A stretch of 64,000 bases of DNA from Promethearchaeota archaeon (GTDB lineage Archaea > Asgardarchaeota > Hermodarchaeia > Hermodarchaeales > Hermodarchaeaceae): positions 28,774-92,773 of the forward strand of contig JBHLMG010000010.1 of the NCBI GenBank assembly GCA_048938385.1. The letters run 5' to 3'. The position numbers and the translations under genes were made by a program. This document shows, in pieces, positions 4,643 through 24,884 of the stretch (its first letter is position 1; every line of letters begins with the position of its first letter). Under the pieces are notes generated by a model that did not search any database, was not told where the DNA came from, and worked only from the letters and a program-made list of their open reading frames with translations.

Positions 4643-7039
4643 ATGTCTCGTCGACAGCAACGCGTTTTCACTTGTAAGAACATGATAATCATCATGATTT
4701 CAGCCTTAATCTTAGGCATCATGTTTAGCGTCATGCCATGGATACAACCGAATGGCGGATTGTGGCAGGATATCCATTGGGCAAACCTTCCACCCTATTC
4801 CAGCCATACAATTCCAGGACTAGATGATGAAGTTCGAATTATCCGGGATCAGTGGGGCGTTCCCCACATTTTTGGCAACAGCCTTAACGACACCTATTTC
4901 GCGTGCGGTTATACTCACGCACAAGATCGCCTCTTCCAATTGGATCTCACCCGTCGAATAGCAAAAGGCCGTCTTTCAGAACTCTTTGGTCCTCTCTATG
5001 AAGATTTAGATGTGTATCACAAGCAACTTAGTTTTAATCAAGCCGCCAGCGCCTCCGAAACTTTGCTGGATTCTACGGTGCTGGGTTTATTGCAGCGGTA
5101 TGCGGATGGTATTAACACTTACATGAGTAGTATTGGCACCAAAGTGCCCGTGGAATTCCGGCTCATTGGCTACTTCCCTGCACCATGGACCGTTCTCGAT
5201 ACACTAACCATTGAACGCTACCTCGCTTGGCAGCTCTCCGAAAATAACGCCTTCAATGATCTCCAAATGGCCAGCCTTATTGACACTTATGGAGCTAACC
5301 TGGTGTTTCGTGACCTGTTTCCAGAAACACATTACAATGATCAACCAACCGTTCCGTCACCCACGCCTGAAATTCTCGCAGCTGCGCGTACCCTTGCTGA
5401 AGAAGTACAACAGCTCCAGCGAACCAATCCCTTTACCACGACATTGGCTCCGGGAAGTAACTGCTGGGTTGTAAATGGATCCCATACCACTACTGGATAC
5501 CCCATCCTTGCAAGCGACCCCCACTTTGCTTTGAAACTTCCTTCTGTTTGGTATGAAATCCACCTGATTGCCCCGGGGCACAATGTGCAAGGCGTCACCT
5601 ACCCTGGTATCCCCTTCATCTATCAAGGACATAACCCTGACATCGGGTGGGCATGGACCAGCATGCAATCGGATGTAACCGATTTTTACTACTACGCTTG
5701 GAATCCAAGTCAACCCGATCAATATTGGTGGCAGGGAGGGTGGCAAACCATCCAAACCCGGAGCACTACCATTGGCACGAAAACGGTTACCTTGAATTAC
5801 ACCGTCCATGGACCTCTGTTCACTGAGGCCACGGGTCGATTTGCCCTCAAATGGACCGGGTACAACGGGTCACAGACCCTTGTAGCCCTTTACTCATTAG
5901 CCCTAGTAACGGATCACACAGAATTCCTTTCAGCCATAAGCTTGATTGAGTGTCCCAACCTCAACTTCCTCTACGCCGATACTAGCGGAAATATCGCCTA
6001 CCACGCTACCGGTGCCCATCCCATACGCGCGCCAGGTCTAGGACCAGCGCTGCACAACGGCTCGGCAGGAACAGACGAGTGGCAAGGCTTCATCCCTTTT
6101 ACGAGCCTCCCCAACAGCTCAAACCCGACCACCGGATATCTGATCAGTGCTAATAACAAGCCAGTCAATGCGAGTTATCCCTATTACCTAGGATACAACT
6201 TTGCCCCCGCTCACCGAGCCAACCGGATTACTGAACTAGTAAATGTTACTGGTCTTCATTCACTCACGGATATGGGTCAGATTCAACAGGACGCCTTTTC
6301 ATTGCATGCACTCGCAATTAAAGACATCATTGCTACTGTAATCCTCGCACAGGTCTCAGCGTCTTCAAACCCTGTAGCACATGCAGCTGCAACAGCACTC
6401 CAAAGTTGGAATGGCGAGATGACTACTGACAGCGTAGCTGCCACAATTTGGGCGAGTTTTTCATTAAAGTTCCGTAACGAAACCTTCTACGATGAGTATG
6501 CACAAGCAGGAATCTCGGAAGGATTTTTACCTGGAGTGACAGTTTTGGAAAACTTTACACAAATAGATTATGGACTATGGTTTAACAATACCCTCCTTCC
6601 TGGAACTCAAACCCGCGATGACATCGTCCTTTCTAGTTTTTTGGCTACCGTTGATGAACTGACCACCAACCTCGGTGCTGATGTAAACGCCTGGCAATAC
6701 TATCGCGTCCATGTACTCTGGATGCAGCATCCCCTCGCTGAAGCTCTTCCCTACATGAGTGCCCCCCTATATCCTATTGATGGGAGCTCGTATACTGTCA
6801 ACTACGCCCCAGGATTTCTGGTAGATAACGGCGCAGCTTACCGGATGCTGCTAGACTTCCAAGATTTTGATCACTCATTAGCCGTGATTGCGGGTGGACA
6901 CCGGGCAAATGTGTACAGCACCCATTACTTGAACCAATTAACCCTATGGGTTACTGGTGACTACCACCCTTTACCCTTCCCCACCATGATCTCCGAGCTG
7001 ACTGATTATGCGTCAATCGTCCACTTATTACCCGCGTGA
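4643..7039 (+). CDS. Penicillin acylase family Ntn-hydrolase, N-terminally anchored/secreted
   Basis: RDQWGVPHI, HAQDRLFQ, GSNCW (Ser nucleophile), DPH, SANN. Confidence 0.9.
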   Translation: MSRRQQRVFTCKNMIIIMISALILGIMFSVMPWIQPNGGLWQDIHWANLPPYSSHTIPGLDDEVRIIRDQWGVPHIFGNSLNDTYFACGYTHAQDRLFQLDLTRRIAKGRLSELFGPLYEDLDVYHKQLSFNQAASASETLLDSTVLGLLQRYADGINTYMSSIGTKVPVEFRLIGYFPAPWTVLDTLTIERYLAWQLSENNAFNDLQMASLIDTYGANLVFRDLFPETHYNDQPTVPSPTPEILAAARTLAEEVQQLQRTNPFTTTLAPGSNCWVVNGSHTTTGYPILASDPHFALKLPSVWYEIHLIAPGHNVQGVTYPGIPFIYQGHNPDIGWAWTSMQSDVTDFYYYAWNPSQPDQYWWQGGWQTIQTRSTTIGTKTVTLNYTVHGPLFTEATGRFALKWTGYNGSQTLVALYSLALVTDHTEFLSAISLIECPNLNFLYADTSGNIAYHATGAHPIRAPGLGPALHNGSAGTDEWQGFIPFTSLPNSSNPTTGYLISANNKPVNASYPYYLGYNFAPAHRANRITELVNVTGLHSLTDMGQIQQDAFSLHALAIKDIIATVILAQVSASSNPVAHAAATALQSWNGEMTTDSVAATIWASFSLKFRNETFYDEYAQAGISEGFLPGVTVLENFTQIDYGLWFNNTLLPGTQTRDDIVLSSFLATVDELTTNLGADVNAWQYYRVHVLWMQHPLAEALPYMSAPLYPIDGSSYTVNYAPGFLVDNGAAYRMLLDFQDFDHSLAVIAGGHRANVYSTHYLNQLTLWVTGDYHPLPFPTMISELTDYASIVHLLPA

Positions 7040-7060
7040 ATACCTTCGAGGTGAAATACC

Positions 7061-7561
7061 ATGTCCATGAAAAATCCAATGGAGAATTTCCGTGCAATTT
7101 TGCGTCAAACCCACCATCCTATCATTGGATTTGTCGTTTGCTTCATCCTCGCCTTTTTCATCCAACTCACCGGATTTGGTATTGGCATCGTAATCGCGGG
7201 TATCATTACAGGGATTTTAGTCAAAAATACCTATAAGGCAATCCTTGCCGCGTTTCTCGCGGGATTCGGTGTCTGGCTCTCTTTGTTTGGCATCATGCTT
7301 GCATTTAACACTCAAGCGTTCATCAACGCCTGGATCGTTCTCTCGTTACAAATTCCCGCCCCACAACTTTTTGTAGCTCTTATTGGAGGCGTTGTCACCG
7401 GTGTGGGAGCACAACTTGGCACCATGTTTGCCGAGATTGCGTACCGTCCCCCAGACGATTTGGGACTCCCACCTGCAGCGACAGAACGCGTACCGACTAA
7501 AGAACTTCCTCGACGCAAGCGCGTAAAACGCAAACGAGTGAAGAAGAAGCGAAAATCCTAA
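7061..7561 (+). CDS. Membrane protein (~4 TM) with polybasic C-terminal tail
   Basis: Hydrophobic segments; GAGGTGA RBS; tail RRKRVKRKRVKKKRKS. Confidence 0.7.
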   Translation: MSMKNPMENFRAILRQTHHPIIGFVVCFILAFFIQLTGFGIGIVIAGIITGILVKNTYKAILAAFLAGFGVWLSLFGIMLAFNTQAFINAWIVLSLQIPAPQLFVALIGGVVTGVGAQLGTMFAEIAYRPPDDLGLPPAATERVPTKELPRRKRVKRKRVKKKRKS

Positions 7562-7642
7562 GACTTCTACACGCTTTACCCACTGTGCAGTATTAGGAAG
7601 ATACTAATAGGAAAATCGTGGTGACCTTCGCAGGTTTCTAAC

Positions 7643-8269
7643 ATGACCCCTGCGAACACCAGCACCCCATCCACCAGGGACTCATATGAGAAGGTCCAGG
7701 AACTCACACAACTTCTAACCAGCCCACATCAGGACATTCGGCGCCAAGCCATCAAAAGTTTGGGTCAGTTGGGATCGGAAGCCATGAGTGCCCTTCCACT
7801 GTTGCGTGACGCGTTACAGGATTCCAACTTCGTAATTCGTTTGGAAGCGGCTATTGCTGTCGGTTTCATTGGCTCCAAAAAGGATACAGAATTTTTGGTT
7901 CCCCTGTTAGATGACGAAAATGAAGCGGTCCGGTTTCAGGCCATTAGCGCTATAGCTTTTCTGTGTGATTCAAAAGTAGCACCTGAACTAATTAAGCGGT
8001 ATGAGGCGGAAACACCGCACATCCGGGACCAAATTCTTCGAGCCTTGGGACATCTCAGGGGAAAGGAAGCCTATGCGTTGTTGAAACGGGAATTAAAGGC
8101 AGACGATCCCACAGTGCGCACTGGAGCTGTTGTAGGATTGAGTTTCTATGGAGATGTGAAGGTTTGTTCTCTGCTGCAGGAAATAGCTGAAAACGACCCA
8201 GATGACCTCGTTGCACATGAAGCCCGGATAGCCGTGCTTCAACTCCAGTATGGACGTAAACTGGATTAA
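7643..8269 (+). CDS. HEAT-repeat (PBS-lyase-like) protein
   Basis: Repeated L.D....VR..A..ALG units. Confidence 0.85.
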   Translation: MTPANTSTPSTRDSYEKVQELTQLLTSPHQDIRRQAIKSLGQLGSEAMSALPLLRDALQDSNFVIRLEAAIAVGFIGSKKDTEFLVPLLDDENEAVRFQAISAIAFLCDSKVAPELIKRYEAETPHIRDQILRALGHLRGKEAYALLKRELKADDPTVRTGAVVGLSFYGDVKVCSLLQEIAENDPDDLVAHEARIAVLQLQYGRKLD

Positions 8270-18917: not shown

Positions 18918-20978
18918 TTATGTCGGTGTACGTTGAGGACGCCGCCGGTACCGAAGGAAGTAAAAAACACCCAGACTAGCGATGATTAACCCAACTATAG
19001 CTCCTCCAGCTATCAGAAGAGTTGGATTCAATTCGACAAGAAAGGTATAGTATACTCCGTTGTTATTGTCAACTACCACATTGTCAAAGTTATCTCTTGC
19101 AAGAATATAGAATCGTACCCGCGCTCCTGCCGGAAAGGGATCGAGGATAACACGATAAGTGTCCCCACTAACGACACGCATCAGGCGTGGCGTCCACAAA
19201 GAATAGTCCACACTGTAAAATAGAAGTACTTGGTTAATTCCAGACCCTTTTACATCCTGAGAGATGGTGGCGGTGACTGTTATAGAATCTGAGTCCAGTG
19301 GTCGATAAGGTAAGAACTGAACTCCAGATATGATAGGTGGATAACTTGTAACCGTTACTGTGACCATTGAAGAATTTTGCCGTCCATTGCCATCAATCAC
19401 TCGGGCTTCCATTCGAACGCGTCCAGTGCCCTGCGCGGTCCAGTTGAAGTAATAGACTTGGTTAGCAATGTACTGATAGCAGTTTTGCCACAAGGAAGCA
19501 TTTACTCGTACTTGAATAGTCGGGATATACCGATTGTCAGGATCTGTGACATTCACCCAAATAGTGTACTCTACACCTTCGTCAAGAATATCGTCATCTT
19601 GGGGAGCGTGAATACTACAATAAATTCCCTTATCAAACACAACCGAAGTTGAAGTTTCAGCAATCCAGCCTTCAACATCATAAGCCCGTGCTCTCATTCG
19701 AGTAACCCCATAAAAACTGGTGGCATCGAACATGTAGGTACAGTGAGTTGAATTTAATCCAGCCGTTACATTAATCCAAGGACCATCATCGATAGAAAGC
19801 TCCACATATTCAACATCGCCAAGTGCGTCATCAATTGATAAGACTACTTCAAAGGGATTCGTGGGAGCCAAATAACTTCCATAGCTGGGAGTGATAAAGT
19901 CAATTTCAGGGAATCCGACTTCGGTTGAAACAATGGTTGCAAAATCTGCAACCGCAGCCGCAGCAGTCTTTGTGGTTAGCGCTCCAAGTTCGGTAGAGTA
20001 TTCGGGTTGTCCAAGGTAATCTTCACTGCTATGAATCCATGGATTGTCCCATCCTTCGTATTCGAAGAACCAGACCGCGGGGATATTTCTATCCCAAAAG
20101 GGTTTGTGATCGCTAGATAGCCATAAGGGTTGCAAATTAGCTTGGACTGGAGCATCAATCACAGATTGGCCAATGCCCTCAGCGTGCTGCGCAAACCATG
20201 CGCTGTCTCCACCGTTATGGACGATATGCACCTTCCAATTCTCTGGAGCAGAGGGGCTATCCCATAATATCATGTCAAAATTGTACATGATTGTCACAGA
20301 GACATTTTCCTGGAAAAGCTTGTTAACAAAAGCTTCACTGCCCACAAGACCCTGCTCCTCCGCGTTGAACGCCACGAACATTATGGTATAGTTATACCTG
20401 TATTGGGAGAGAACTCGTGCCATTTCAAGGACTGCACTAATCCCAGATCCATCATCATCAGCACCTGGCGATGCGATTGGATAGGTATCCAGGTGAGCAC
20501 CGACGATAATTGTCGCATTATTGTGAATACTCCCACCTTTCAGTGTGCCTATTACATTGGGTTGACCCGTGCTAAAAGAGTGGAGTTCAACCTCCAGTCC
20601 ATAGCTCTGAAATTTGTTTGCGATATATTCCACAGCGCGACTGTTTCCAGGAGTTCCCCAAAAGCGGGATCCAATGGTCCCAGAAATATAACTCAATTTG
20701 CTATTATAACTCTCGGTAGTGATTTGGTCGATGATGTTTTGGATTTCAGCGGGAGCATTTGGTATTGGTGGATTATGAGTATTCCAACTCTGGAGTTGGA
20801 CATTACTTCCTGTTGAGCGAAGCGATGTAGGAGAAGTTATTGAGTCGGAAGTTGCCCCCTGTTCAATCCTTAACCCTGCATATGGGTCTTGAGAAGGAGG
20901 GATGATAGGAATGGTTCCACCGAGCATAATGACCAAGAAGAATGTGAAAAGGAGGGATGACCGGTGCATGTATATCAC
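18918..20978 (-). CDS. M28 family aminopeptidase with Ig-like domains and C-terminal TM anchor
   Basis: GAHLD, GADDDGSG, NAEEQGLVGS, NFDM, SDH, IHSSED. Confidence 0.9.
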   Translation of the reverse strand: MIYMHRSSLLFTFFLVIMLGGTIPIIPPSQDPYAGLRIEQGATSDSITSPTSLRSTGSNVQLQSWNTHNPPIPNAPAEIQNIIDQITTESYNSKLSYISGTIGSRFWGTPGNSRAVEYIANKFQSYGLEVELHSFSTGQPNVIGTLKGGSIHNNATIIVGAHLDTYPIASPGADDDGSGISAVLEMARVLSQYRYNYTIMFVAFNAEEQGLVGSEAFVNKLFQENVSVTIMYNFDMILWDSPSAPENWKVHIVHNGGDSAWFAQHAEGIGQSVIDAPVQANLQPLWLSSDHKPFWDRNIPAVWFFEYEGWDNPWIHSSEDYLGQPEYSTELGALTTKTAAAAVADFATIVSTEVGFPEIDFITPSYGSYLAPTNPFEVVLSIDDALGDVEYVELSIDDGPWINVTAGLNSTHCTYMFDATSFYGVTRMRARAYDVEGWIAETSTSVVFDKGIYCSIHAPQDDDILDEGVEYTIWVNVTDPDNRYIPTIQVRVNASLWQNCYQYIANQVYYFNWTAQGTGRVRMEARVIDGNGRQNSSMVTVTVTSYPPIISGVQFLPYRPLDSDSITVTATISQDVKGSGINQVLLFYSVDYSLWTPRLMRVVSGDTYRVILDPFPAGARVRFYILARDNFDNVVVDNNNGVYYTFLVELNPTLLIAGGAIVGLIIASLGVFYFLRYRRRPQRTPT

Positions 20979-21095
20979 AATCTAAAAAGTCAGATAATAG
21001 TCGAAAAACACCTAATTTTATGTTATATTCTTTCCGATTCAAGCAAAGCAGGAAATCTCCTGCCCTTACTAAATCTGAAACACATTAATCCAAGA

Positions 21096-21632
21096 CTACT
21101 CCTGTTTTAGTTCAGAAACTAAAATCATTTCTGCGAGTTTATCGAAAACTTCGCTTACTTTGAAATCGGTCTTTGCACTGGTTTCAAAATAGGGAATGTT
21201 CTTTTCCTTCGAATAATTCTGTGCTTCCTCAATAGAAATAGTACGAGTGTCATCTAAATCAATCTTGTTCCCCACTAGCACAACTGGCACATCAAGCCCC
21301 GAATAGCGACGAATTTGATCATACCATTTCTCAGCATTGACAAAGCTTTGCCGCATGGTGATATCGAAGACTAATAATGCCCCCTTGGCTCCACGGAAAT
21401 AAATCGGACGCACACCTGAGTAGCGCTCCTGACCTGCTGTATCCCAGGCCTGAATCTTTACAATCTGGTTGTTAATCGGAATAGATTTCACGATAAAATC
21501 GACACCAAGAGTGGAAATGTACCCATCTGTGAAGGTGCCGTAAGCAAATCGTTGGGTAAGGCTAGTTTTACCAACCTCAGCGTCACCAACTAGAACGATC
21601 TTAAAAAGATAATCGAACGCATCGTGCGGCAT
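21096..21632 (-). CDS. Rab-like small GTPase
   Basis: GDAEVGKT, STLGVDF, WDTAGQE, NKID, ETSAK; RabF-like motifs; no C-terminal Cys. Confidence 0.93.
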   Translation of the reverse strand: MPHDAFDYLFKIVLVGDAEVGKTSLTQRFAYGTFTDGYISTLGVDFIVKSIPINNQIVKIQAWDTAGQERYSGVRPIYFRGAKGALLVFDITMRQSFVNAEKWYDQIRRYSGLDVPVVLVGNKIDLDDTRTISIEEAQNYSKEKNIPYFETSAKTDFKVSEVFDKLAEMILVSELKQE

Positions 21633-21751
21633 GCCCAGAACCCATACAACAGTTATTATCTATGCTTAATGCTGCAGAGGTGTCACTTAATCTTTTGGAA
21701 TCTTGACAGTTTCATCAGGTTCCTTTGCAGAGTAATAAAAAGGAGAACACC

Positions 21752-22912
21752 TCATCGGGGAAAGTATTCAAAACCGCGGTAACCCTTCCGGCGTTGAAGT
21801 TTTTGCATATCGAAGAGTTTTTTGAGTTCGTTGGATGCAGTCCCCTTCGTAATGCCAACTTCCTCAGCAACGACAGCAGAGGTCACTCCATCCTTTTCCT
21901 TTGCTAAGGCGAGGATTTCACGTTGTGTCGCTGTTAATTCGTCGAATTCTTCAAACCAGTCTTCATCCTCCCCTTGGGGACTAGATTCGATAAATCGTGT
22001 CGGATCTTGTATACTTGGAATCAGAGTAGTAACTGGTGGAGGACTAGGTTGGAGTTTTACGACTTGATGTACAAAGTCTCGAGTGATTCGATCACCGGAG
22101 GGAGTATCTTCTTGAAATGCCTGTGTAATGATGTTTTCACAAAAACGAAGGACACTCCGAGGATAACCTCGAGTATGGAGATGCATTTCATCTAAAGCCT
22201 CTTCTGTAAAGGGTGTAAGCCCCTGTCCCCCATAGAATTCGATACGTTGTCGAATGAGTTGCTCCATCTCCTTGCGGGATAACACCTCCAACCCATTCTC
22301 GCCTTCGGTTTCCAAGAAGAACTGTAAGGTAACTCGCTCTGCAAGTGGAGGAAAGATGCTCGTTAAGGCCTTGGTAAATCCAGTTAATCCAGCAATATAC
22401 ACCACGACTGCAGGCATGTCGCTAAGTACACGGAGCCACCGAACAGTTTTTCGCTTCTCAACCTCGACCGGCTCTGTATCCTCTTTGGTCAAGGCTAGGC
22501 TCTGACCATCATCTATCAGTAAAATAATTCGTCGTTTACTCTGTTTATGGAACTGCCGCACCCTTTTTGCAAGATCATCGATGAGGGTAGGGACAGTATT
22601 AACCTTAAGCATCAGCTCTTCCCGCATGAGATTCATGAGCGTGTTGCTTAAGATTGTGGAATCTAGGGGTTCAGAAACTAAACAGGGAACTAGGGCTGGA
22701 GATTCTGCAAGGTAGTCATGGAACCACCGCAAGATGTGGGTTTTCCCTGTTCCGCGACCCCCTTCAATGAGAATTATGTTACCTGTGCGGAGTTGCACCA
22801 CTAAAGGATTTAGTAATCGTTTTTCAGCAGCAAAGACTTCTGGCATGACATCGATCCGAAAGGGGAAATCGGACCAACCAAGGCTTTTGAGACGTTCATC
22901 GAAAGCAAACAT
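21752..22912 (-). CDS. ExeA/AAA_22-like AAA+ ATPase with C-terminal winged helix
   Basis: Walker A GGRGTGKT, Walker B LLIDD, LAERV, TRGYPRSV; C-terminal ITKGTASNELKKL HTH. Confidence 0.8.
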   Translation of the reverse strand: MFAFDERLKSLGWSDFPFRIDVMPEVFAAEKRLLNPLVVQLRTGNIILIEGGRGTGKTHILRWFHDYLAESPALVPCLVSEPLDSTILSNTLMNLMREELMLKVNTVPTLIDDLAKRVRQFHKQSKRRIILLIDDGQSLALTKEDTEPVEVEKRKTVRWLRVLSDMPAVVVYIAGLTGFTKALTSIFPPLAERVTLQFFLETEGENGLEVLSRKEMEQLIRQRIEFYGGQGLTPFTEEALDEMHLHTRGYPRSVLRFCENIITQAFQEDTPSGDRITRDFVHQVVKLQPSPPPVTTLIPSIQDPTRFIESSPQGEDEDWFEEFDELTATQREILALAKEKDGVTSAVVAEEVGITKGTASNELKKLFDMQKLQRRKGYRGFEYFPR

Positions 22913-22990
22913 GTTTAGTCACCGGCGATGGTGTGATTCTTGGATGCATCTCCAATTGTGTGAAAGCCACTCCTCCCAGTCTACTTCAGT

Positions 22991-23272
22991 CTACGCATCG
23001 GTAGTAATTCCGTCACCCATACGACCCAGGAAATTGTTATAGGCGAATGGACAGACGACCTCGATACCAGCGCTGGGATCGAACTCTACCTGTTCTTTGC
23101 CAATTGAGCAGAAGAAGGCACAGTATCCACCATCTACGAGTCGACCGGTCCGCTGACACACAAAGGTTCGAGCGGTGGGGGTAATTAATTCCAGAACCGC
23201 GTTGGCGTCGAGTTGTGCAATTGCTTCTTCAAGTCGGAATTTTGGTTGAAGCGCTTTGATTTTGTCACTCAC
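22991..23272 (-). CDS. Small Cys-containing hypothetical protein
   Basis: 93 aa, four Cys (CQRTG..YCAFFC..VVCPF); GTG start after GAGGTGA; 4-bp overlap with the upstream ORF. Confidence 0.6.
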   Translation of the reverse strand: MSDKIKALQPKFRLEEAIAQLDANAVLELITPTARTFVCQRTGRLVDGGYCAFFCSIGKEQVEFDPSAGIEVVCPFAYNNFLGRMGDGITTDA

Positions 23273-23472
23273 GCATTCTTCACCTCGCGTTGCTGCTTCG
23301 CAAGCAGTTCATCTTCCCGTAGTTGTGCAATTGTTCGAGCAATCCGGACACGCAGCGTAGCCGTCACCAGTGGCATCGCTTCTTGGAGCTGCTCTGCGAT
23401 GCTAGGCGCTTGGAGACGACTGTTAGCATCCGGTCGAGCTCTCCCAGATGCTGTTGCTTCGTCGATTGCCAT
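23269..23472 (-). CDS. Small helical hypothetical protein
   Basis: 67 aa; GAGGG RBS and TTTATAT box upstream; coupled to the next ORF. Confidence 0.55.
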   Translation of the reverse strand: MAIDEATASGRARPDANSRLQAPSIAEQLQEAMPLVTATLRVRIARTIAQLREDELLAKQQREVKNA

Positions 23473-23801
23473 AGCTCATCGTCCCTCATTGAATCTCATT
23501 AACATTCATTCTTTTTCATTTTACTACATATAAAGCTTCGCTTTCCCCTCTTTGCAGGTTTCAAGCGCTAAGAAAAGCCCATCATAGGGGGCACACTGAA
23601 AAAAGTTGGACTTGAAATCAGGGCGTGTGAAATATAATTCCAAAATAAACGGTCGAGAAGGCGTTTTTTCTCAAAAAGAAAATTTAGTCGTTCATTTATG
23701 CTATCAAATGAAACGGAAAACCCCCAAAATTGTTCTAGTCTTTGGCGCGCATTCTCCCTATTCTGGAATCAAGAATAAGATCCAACAGGATAATGGCGCC
23801 G

Positions 23802-24884
23802 TTAGCGTTTTCGACGGCTGGACTCGGTAGTCGGCTGAGCCTTTTCCTCACCCTCCACCTCTGAGCTTTGCTCAGATTCCAATGTATGGGACAGTACGGA
23901 TTCTTGTGCAAGAAACGCAAGGAGCCGAAATCTTTCTGAATCGAAATGGAGGAGACTTCGTAATTGCTCTAGAGTGAAGTGTTGGGCACTACGGCGAAAA
24001 TCGATGAAGCTATTTAGTTGTGCTCGGAGCGTTTCTAGTTGGAGTTCAAGGAGTTTTGCTTGAAGACGGCCATCATCACTTTGAGTAAGGGCTTGTTTGG
24101 CTAGATCCATACTGGGTTGATGAAGGGGAGCAAGGTACACAGGAGGAGTCTTATTCAGGTTGAGAAATAGATACTGCTCTAGGTTATCTGGAGTAGTTAA
24201 GGTGCGGTAGACTTCTTCGGTAACCCCGAGTAGGGTTGGTCGTTTGTGGGGTTGGTTTTCACGACTTTCTAGAATTCCTTTTGCAGTTTCTAATTCCGAG
24301 ATTCCTGGCATGTTGGGAACCGTGAAGGGGAGGACTTGGTCAATAGCTTCACTCAGTTGTTCGAAGGTCTTGTAATCAACACCCGTTATGATAATTGCAT
24401 TACCTACAAGGATGTTTAGAAGCAAAACATCGAGGGCATCATTAAATTTTTCGAGAATATACTCAGTTTGACTGATTCGTTTGCGTGCTACTTGCGAACG
24501 TTCGTTGTGAGCTTTCAACGCTGAGAGAATAATTGGGATGAAGGCCTGAAAGGGTTTAACATCGCCACTCCATTTCTTTAGCTGAATTTCATATTGGTTA
24601 TAGAAGAGCACATTGAGGCTGTGAAGAACGGCTTGAACTTCGAGTTCATCAGCGTTGCCATCAGCAAGCCCAACTGTAATGAGTGGAGCTAGGACATCAT
24701 AGTGGAACCGATACTCGCCTGCACCGATGGTTCGTACCTCTTCGGCGATGGCTTCGTGTCCAAATTCTCGTATCGCAGTAAGAAGTCCGGTTAAGAGGGT
24801 TTGTTCGAGTTTGACAACTGGAGAGGTATGAGAAACTAGGGTTTCACCCGATGAGAGGAAGATGAAAACAGAATGTAGTGTCAT
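23802..24884 (-). CDS. Longin-domain protein with DENN/folliculin-like C-terminal part
   Basis: N-terminal longin pattern (VFIFLSSGETLV..LLTGLLTAIREF..F...Y...WSGDV..F..F); then LLNILVGNAIIITG..QVLPF. Confidence 0.6.
   Translation of the reverse strand: MTLHSVFIFLSSGETLVSHTSPVVKLEQTLLTGLLTAIREFGHEAIAEEVRTIGAGEYRFHYDVLAPLITVGLADGNADELEVQAVLHSLNVLFYNQYEIQLKKWSGDVKPFQAFIPIILSALKAHNERSQVARKRISQTEYILEKFNDALDVLLLNILVGNAIIITGVDYKTFEQLSEAIDQVLPFTVPNMPGISELETAKGILESRENQPHKRPTLLGVTEEVYRTLTTPDNLEQYLFLNLNKTPPVYLAPLHQPSMDLAKQALTQSDDGRLQAKLLELQLETLRAQLNSFIDFRRSAQHFTLEQLRSLLHFDSERFRLLAFLAQESVLSHTLESEQSSEVEGEEKAQPTTESSRRKR

Follow-up and report, generated by a model that had tools for sequence, protein, structure and literature searches.

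The window analysed here is a 64,000-nucleotide stretch (positions 28774-92773) of contig JBHLMG010000010.1 (contig C37 of a 2.48-Mb metagenome-assembled genome (MAG) that is 90% complete) from an Asgard archaeon. In public records, near relatives of this genome appear as Promethearchaeota, Hermodarchaeia or Thorarchaeota, hence the Asgard assignment. It contains, at positions 21096-24884, five minus-strand genes that run from a longin-DENN protein of 360 aa to a Rab-like GTPase of 178 aa (Rab178). We favour, at a probability of roughly 55%, reading the locus as three adjacent units in which the longin-DENN protein is a regulator of, or a platform for, Rab-like GTPases, with Rab178 as a plausible client. 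Unit 1 would be a monocistronic longin-DENN gene whose product has the architecture of DENND10, folliculin (FLCN), C9orf72 and SMCR8. This protein most likely binds a small GTPase, either controlling its nucleotide state or serving as its platform, and may pair with a paralogue encoded on contig C33. Unit 2 would be an operon of two small genes (s67 and s93) and an ATPase gene (AAA386); it would encode a predicted DNA-binding ExeA-like ATPase together with two small accessory proteins, of which one is a putative metal binder. We regard unit 2 as a putative regulator whose tie to the GTPase is conjectural. Unit 3 would be the Rab-like GTPase gene with a conserved upstream box of its own. Since Rab178 has no lipid anchor, it would reach any target through partners.

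Gene calling gives five consecutive open reading frames (ORFs) that do not overlap by gene call, except for 4 bp between s67 and s93, with intergenic gaps of 329, 78 and 119 bp. They sit exactly where an earlier reading of the DNA letters (the sequence-only reading) had placed five consecutive minus-strand genes. Its labels also hold: the AAA+ ATPase and the Rab-like GTPase match Pfam AAA_22 and Pfam Ras, and the 360-aa protein is longin/DENN-like at the level of predicted structure, by AlphaFold2 (AF2), Foldseek and VIA-align.

The 360-aa protein (23802-24884, minus strand) is predicted to be a longin domain (aa 1-134; 24483-24884, minus strand) followed by a DENN domain (aa 138-336; 23877-24473, minus strand). 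Its AF2 model, made from an alignment of 23 sequences, has a mean predicted local distance difference test score (pLDDT) of 78, with values of 85-96 across residues 140-330 and mostly 84-96 across residues 138-336. The longin part has the topology beta-beta-alpha-beta-beta-beta-alpha, and in the C-terminal part an alpha/beta core precedes a helical lobe. With VIA-align, residues 1-134 match Sec22b (3egd_C; Z 15.8, root-mean-square deviation (rmsd) 2.4, 126 residues aligned) as well as the VAMP7 and Ykt6 longins, TRAPP and AP sigma/mu subunits (Z 11-14). Residues 138-336 match DENND10 (8p0v_M; Z 12.5, 180 aligned, rmsd 4.2), the folliculin C-terminal domain (3v42_B; Z 11.2, 178 of 199 aligned, rmsd 4.0) and DENND1A (6ekk_A; Z 10.9, 193 aligned). 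The whole model aligns with FLCN, SMCR8 and C9orf72 over 303-308 residues (Z 12.3, 12.2 and 8.9, respectively), and the top full-length Foldseek matches are DENND10, FLCN, DENND1B, C9orf72 and SMCR8. A shape search of the ESM Atlas with the model gave longin-level matches only.

By sequence, the protein has a narrow distribution. All 39 homologues are in Promethearchaeota-type MAGs. When 1.8 billion representatives were searched exhaustively with a profile, full-length relatives turned up in the protein's own narrow group and one paralogue group only; the remaining matches cover residues 1-130, the longin domain, alone. No Pfam or NCBIfam family is matched at E-values up to 1 (including the DENN, uDENN, dDENN and Folliculin models), a profile search against PDB sequences returned no match and no DENN protein, and PF02141 has no match in the whole genome.

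The closest parallels are DENND10 (FAM45A) and the DENND1 exchange factors of Rab35, with which the protein shares, within a single chain of about 360 residues, the succession of longin (uDENN) domain, alpha/beta core DENN domain and helical lobe. DENND10, at 357 aa, ranks first among the Foldseek matches and also first among the VIA-align matches of the DENN domain. The archaeal protein differs from these proteins in its host and in having no detectable sequence similarity to them. The global superposition is also poor (template modelling score 0.31-0.36), as the relative placement of the two lobes in the AF2 model is different. FLCN/FNIP and C9orf72/SMCR8 share the two-domain architecture, and the Asgard family likewise has a pair of paralogous longin-DENN genes; however, the loop reads S-G-E-T/N and not G-P, and the neighbouring GTPase is Rab-like and not Rag/Arf-like.

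This loop bears on the type of activity to be expected. A GP motif marks longin domains of the GTPase-activating protein (GAP) type (FLCN, SMCR8, C9orf72, NPRL2) and not DENND proteins (Traffic 2025 survey, PMC12290439). No GP motif was found at the loop before strand beta-2, as located with the 23-homologue alignment and the AF2 secondary structure: the loop is (S/T)-G-E-T/N-L, with the Gly conserved and Pro in 0 homologues. DENND proteins also do without the motif, and its absence makes the longin domain resemble the DENND (exchange-factor or adaptor) type more than the folliculin (GAP) type. Two arginines of the longin domain, R39 and R59, are 90% conserved; no invariant arginine could be placed at the finger position of the GAP-type longins (FLCN R164, SMCR8 R147).

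The paralogous longin-DENN gene is present in at least 16 genomes of the family. The copy in the host genome, on contig C33, encodes 357 aa and matches hidden Markov models (HMMs) of the longin domain at 1e-27 and of the DENN domain at 5e-5. FLCN pairs with FNIP, and C9orf72 with SMCR8, as longin-DENN heterodimers; by analogy with FLCN/FNIP, the 360-aa protein and the C33 paralogue may form a heterodimer as well. In relatives, the paralogous gene has a Roadblock/LC7 gene at a distance of about 2 kb (L024:3304-3711, minus strand; L025:6912-7298, plus strand), and no GTPase gene was seen there.

The candidate client, Rab178 (21096-21632, minus strand), matches Pfam Ras at 2e-58. Its closest solved relatives by PDB profile are Rab3, Rab1, Rab43 and Rab35 (about 1e-46), all of them Rabs, and its orthologues are labelled 'Rab family GTPase' by NCBI. 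Motifs G1-G5 are complete (GDAEVGKT, T41, WDTAGQE, NKID and SAK), and the switch-II Gln is present. Segments LGVDF, KIQAW, YFRGA and LVFDIT resemble the RabF motifs F1, F2, F4 and F5, and RYSGVR departs from F3. The RabF consensus motifs are said to come from Pereira-Leal and Seabra in 2000. No C-terminal prenylation cysteine was found: the protein ends in VSELKQE and has no Cys in its whole sequence. Other Asgard Rab-like GTPases (e.g. Tran et al. 2024, PMC10933270) similarly have a Ras fold nearest to eukaryotic Rabs and no prenylation site. Rab178 differs from them in that its orthogroup is limited to its own family, with at least 60% identity inside it and at most 54% to anything else. When orthologues were traced past the family, the signal was lost among dozens of paralogues of 45-54% identity.

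Genome-wide, longin genes lie close to Rab-like genes. HMMs from our own alignments identify 11 genes with this longin type and 21 strong Rab-like genes in the host genome. Four of the 11 longin genes are within 3 kb of a Rab-like gene, compared to 0.67 expected under random placement (P about 0.003, with the locus itself counted among the four). Two of the associations are paralogous bicistrons with a 4-bp overlap, in which a longin-bearing protein of 273 or 275 aa precedes a GTPase of 184 or 190 aa (C23:256246-257618, shown as L065:4247-5619, plus strand; C26:33571-34967, shown as L066:4072-5468, plus strand). The longin domain of the 273/275-aa proteins is N-terminal, and their C-terminal half has no assigned family. 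These bicistrons are clear cognate pairs. In this genome, longin-GTPase coupling is real, with the 360-aa protein and Rab178 as a looser instance. A role of the longin-DENN protein as regulator of a Rab-like GTPase fits this enrichment and is reasonable by analogy. To this extent the regulator-GTPase pairing proposed by the sequence-only reading is plausible; its extension to one five-gene unit is not supported, as set out below. In a different family (f2, with 1.4-Mb genomes), a 298-aa protein fuses a longin domain to an Arf/Rag-like GTPase (L026:5161-6057 and L027:5136-6032, both minus strand); the fusion gene adjoins ORFs that resemble Vps4 (MIT) and ESCRT-III, as judged from N-terminal sequences alone.

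The concept of DENN proteins coupled to Rab-like GTPases in Asgard archaea has been published. A preprint by Liu et al. (bioRxiv 10.1101/2020.10.19.343400) describes Asgard DENN proteins, FLCN-like longin-DENN fusions in some Heimdall lineages and a predicted operon of a LAMTOR1-like roadblock protein, a Rab-like GTPase and a DENN protein. The preprint reportedly became a Nature article in 2021. In later papers, the presence of DENN and longin domains in Asgard archaea is taken as established. Set against the predicted operon, the locus is alike in encoding an Asgard DENN-fold protein near a Rab-like (not Rag) GTPase. It differs in its lineage, a Loki/Hermod-type family, in the compact DENND10-like size of the protein, in the separation of the DENN and Rab genes by three genes and two box-bearing spacers, in the ExeA-like ATPase operon that lies between them, and in the apparent absence of a roadblock/LAMTOR1-like gene by family match. 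The 360-aa protein may belong to one of the published families. Given what the preprint already reports, calling the unit undescribed, as had been suggested, was too strong.

The division into three units comes from the spacers. We aligned the 329-bp spacer between the longin-DENN gene and s67 (23473-23801, minus strand) across seven genomes and the 119-bp spacer ahead of the Rab gene (21633-21751, minus strand) across eight genomes from two genera. In the 329-bp spacer, a GC hairpin (GGCGCGC..GCGCGCC) directly follows the longin-DENN stop codon, and several conserved AT-rich blocks come after it. A box resembling a B recognition element and TATA box (BRE/TATA-like), GCGAAGCTTTATATG (23527-23541), is located 58 nt ahead of the s67 ATG. 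All six genus-g1 genomes whose sequence reads through the box have it in identical form; the seventh has N. Five (A/G)ATGA repeats with an exact 10-nt period (23476-23520) occupy the presumed 5' leader, ending just short of the s67 ATG. Other conserved blocks are TAATGACCGACTTAATTTTATTTTT and the palindrome ATGGAATnnnATTCCAT, which is degenerate in the host genome. The blocks of this spacer may be operator sites for the AAA386 winged helix. A non-coding RNA in the spacer was rejected, since Rfam gave no match and RNAalifold no covariation.

The 119-bp spacer has a box, TTAAGTGA (21683-21690), about 58 nt ahead of the Rab ATG, which is invariant in both genera and is a candidate promoter or operator. 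An 11-mer of the same spacer, TTAAGTGACAC, is unique in the genome; a genome-wide search found none of the conserved spacer boxes at a second position. The 78-bp gap ahead of AAA386 is GC-rich and contains no TATA-like box, so AAA386 is probably co-transcribed with s67 and s93.

The 329-bp spacer also tolerates insertions. One relative (G011) has a 2.8-kb insertion between the longin-DENN gene and s67, which carries an IS605-type TnpB gene (479 aa; L014:3464-4903, minus strand; OrfB_IS605 and Cas12f-like TNB domain). Another (G014) has a 1.4-kb insertion at the same spacer, with a 292-aa gene on the opposite strand. From the conserved boxes and the tolerated insertions we infer three separate transcription units: longin-DENN; s67-s93-AAA386; and Rab. 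The promoter-like AT-rich boxes that had been noted in gaps of about 330 and 120 bp are present and conserved in relatives. The accompanying view that the cluster is probably not a single transcript agrees with the boxes before s67 and Rab and with the insertions. Sequencing runs that contain the locus DNA are from sediment and mangrove metagenomes, and no RNA run is listed among them.

In the middle unit, s67 (67 aa; 23269-23472, minus strand) and s93 (93 aa; 22991-23272, minus strand) overlap by 4 bp, the GTG start of s93 lying on the stop of s67 (GTGA). Across nine genomes of the genus, the ratio of nonsynonymous to synonymous polymorphism (pN/pS) is 0.18 for both, and the variable sites at codon positions 1/2/3 number 17/13/50 and 37/23/84 for the two small ORFs. 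Other frames of s67 give a pN/pS of 1.3-2.2 in four of five cases and 0.26 in the antisense frame that shares third codon positions. This substitution pattern indicates that s67 and s93 are real genes under purifying selection. The conserved core of s67 is LQAPSIEEQLKEAMPLVTATLRVRIARTIAQLRE. The gene is found in genus g1 and in a third lineage, and gene calls include it at L042 and L043; tblastn did not detect it in genus g2. The s93 protein has four conserved cysteines (C39, C51, C55 and C74), a pattern kept in distant homologues from family f18, and is a putative metal-binding mini-domain. Neither small protein matches Robl_LC7 or any other family in Pfam or NCBIfam. One f18 relative of s93 precedes a RadA-like ATPase and an M28 peptidase, and other copies have unrelated neighbours; a shared context for these relatives was rejected because the neighbours are inconsistent.

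AAA386 (386 aa; 21752-22912, minus strand) is an ExeA-like AAA_22 ATPase. It matches Pfam AAA_22 at 9.4e-8 (32.9 bits, cut-off 27) and NCBIfam TIGR03015 at 1e-13, and its homologues are labelled 'type II secretory pathway predicted ATPase ExeA' by JGI. The Walker A (GGRGTGKT) and Walker B (ILLIDDG) motifs are kept in the family alignment; the protein also has an N-terminal W-x-(D/N/S/A)-x-P-F motif, a GYPR/GAPR box in which G-x-P-R is invariant, and an acidic/proline linker. A C-terminal MarR/TrmB-type winged helix is predicted. The winged helix-turn-helix (wHTH) models fall just below threshold in AAA386 (HTH_24 20.4, threshold 21.9; HTH_24 and MarR about 1e-3) and above it in a homologue from locus L045 (MarR_2 30.2, threshold 27; TrmB 25.9, threshold 25.6). 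The W-motif, Walker A/B motifs, G-x-P-R box, wHTH and length of about 390 aa are those of ExeA/GspA-type proteins with AAA_22 and a winged helix, an Orc1/Cdc6-like layout. In contrast to this type, the AAA386 locus has no type II secretion, transposon or replication-origin context, two small coupled ORFs precede the ATPase gene in the window's family (f1), and the protein family is limited to a few Asgard families. A defence-system reading of the operon was rejected, as PADLOC gave only P-loop-level scraps.

Beyond the family, AAA386 relatives occur in families f15, f5 and f33. The nearest, from f15, aligns over its full length at 32% identity and stands head-to-head with a tandem pair of standalone longin genes (133 and 134 aa), in flanks unlike those of the window (genome G056, L037:4851-5935, minus strand, and 6877-7971, plus strand; L038 likewise). 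In one f33 genome, a 1400-aa longin-containing gene is two genes away from the AAA386 homologue. The remaining loci of the AAA386 family have ABC-transporter or M28 neighbours. Together these loci give a weak but real hint that the AAA386 family is linked to longin proteins.

The sequence-only reading had named a synteny survey across Asgard genomes as a check. The five genes have the same order in the two genera searched, and also in two metagenome contigs that belong to the family but are more divergent. The same holds for the surroundings: at least 14 genes are collinear in the flanking block as scored in two long metagenome contigs and this window, including GH35/42, PNPOx and M42 genes, the five genes, a 400-aa gene, an M28 gene, a 670-aa gene and a metallophosphatase gene. 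Because unrelated flanking genes are equally collinear, the conserved order says nothing specific about a module. Outside the family the parts of the cluster scatter, and no full-length relative of the 360-aa protein was found there. The G+C content of the locus (44-47%) is the same as that of the adjacent 14-32 kb (whole window 42-50%), giving no genomic-island signal by composition.

Several observations weigh against the favoured reading. Between the 360-aa and Rab178 genes lie 2.2 kb and an operon that looks unrelated, whereas the clear pairs of this genome have a 4-bp overlap. The genome encodes about 21 Rab-like GTPases and additional ones of the Arf/Rag-like kind, any of which could be the true client. 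The DENN call comes from a predicted structure based on a 23-sequence alignment, four other models have a pLDDT of 63-67, and at the sequence level Pfam, the PDB profile and PF02141 are all empty. Family synteny is no stronger than for the flanking peptidase and glycosidase genes, and the operon boundaries are drawn from sequence conservation. Predictions of a complex of the 360-aa protein with Rab178 gave an ipSAE of 0.01 in both runs, which were made without controls and weigh neither way.

The best surviving alternative, which we consider possible and distinctly less probable, is that the genes are neighbours by history only: the longin-DENN protein would serve another GTPase (Rab-, Arf- or Rag-like) or act as a pure adaptor, and Rab178 would have other partners. 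An adaptor role without GTPase regulation is debated for DENND10. The block is simply collinear across the family, the true longin/GTPase pairs of the genome are bicistronic, and for any one longin gene in a 2.48-Mb genome with 21 Rab-like genes, the chance of having one of these within 2.2 kb is about 5%. This chance applies to a single gene, however, and genome-wide the longin genes cluster with Rab-like genes far above expectation. The longin-DENN-to-Rab arrangement is also kept wherever contigs allow, and DENN/Rab-like linkage recurs in Asgard archaea, as described by Liu et al. (bioRxiv 10.1101/2020.10.19.343400).

A likelier direct partner of Rab178, on this account, would be the 400-aa gene found 17-53 bp after the Rab gene in 13 of 18 related genomes (L013:1823-3031 and L015:1745-2974, minus strand; L042:8897-10108 and L043:8835-10034, plus strand). 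But this gene is dispensable: it is absent in the host genome, where it would fall between window positions 20979 and 21095, and in genome G006, and it is broken in genome G007. Its product is modelled by AF2 as a confident all-helical bundle (pLDDT 87). It has no Pfam match and no Atlas lead, and its best structural matches (Z at most 11) are within the helical background.

We think it unlikely that all five proteins act as one signalling or trafficking unit, in which, for example, the ATPase may link transcription to the state of the Rab switch, or may remodel assemblies of longin proteins and GTPases. The five genes are co-oriented, their order is kept in both genera and the two divergent contigs, and longin genes are near AAA386 homologues in two of four further loci (f15 and f33), where the expectation is a few per cent each. 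Yet the f15 locus has neither a GTPase nor a DENN gene, the f33 longin link is lost in a congener, the other two homologues adjoin ABC-transporter or M28 genes, and the family-wide collinearity takes in unrelated genes. A single five-gene unit is further disfavoured by the 329-bp spacer, which is insertion-tolerant with a promoter-like box of its own, by the separate conserved box before Rab, and by an order that is bound to the family, with the parts separate outside it. Less likely still is that AAA386 and the two micro-proteins are a dedicated longin partner, as the f15 and f33 longin neighbours might suggest, and that the five genes together make up a single circuit, with a DNA-binding ATPase that reads out or loads the longin-DENN/Rab switch; if true, this would give a eukaryote-style GTPase module a prokaryote-style transcriptional output.

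To our knowledge, almost no regulator-client pair has been assigned in Asgard archaea, which have many small GTPases and longin/roadblock proteins. The locus provides a longin-DENN protein that is small, soluble and well modelled and has a single paralogue, together with a few candidate clients, first among them the Rab-like GTPase without a lipid anchor that is encoded 2 kb away. The longin/Rab-like bicistrons on C23 and C26 are built-in positive comparators. Together these make practical a biochemical test of whether DENN-type GTPase regulation predated eukaryotes. With the concept already published, the value of the locus is as a tractable test case and not as a new principle.

M28 peptidase genes are found near parts of the cluster in three families. 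In the window's family (f1), one follows the Rab gene (window positions 18918-20978, minus strand). In f5, one is just before the AAA386 homologue (L031:5942-9975), and in f18 one comes after the s93 homologue and the RadA-like ATPase (L039:4695-7400). This recurrence may be due to chance.

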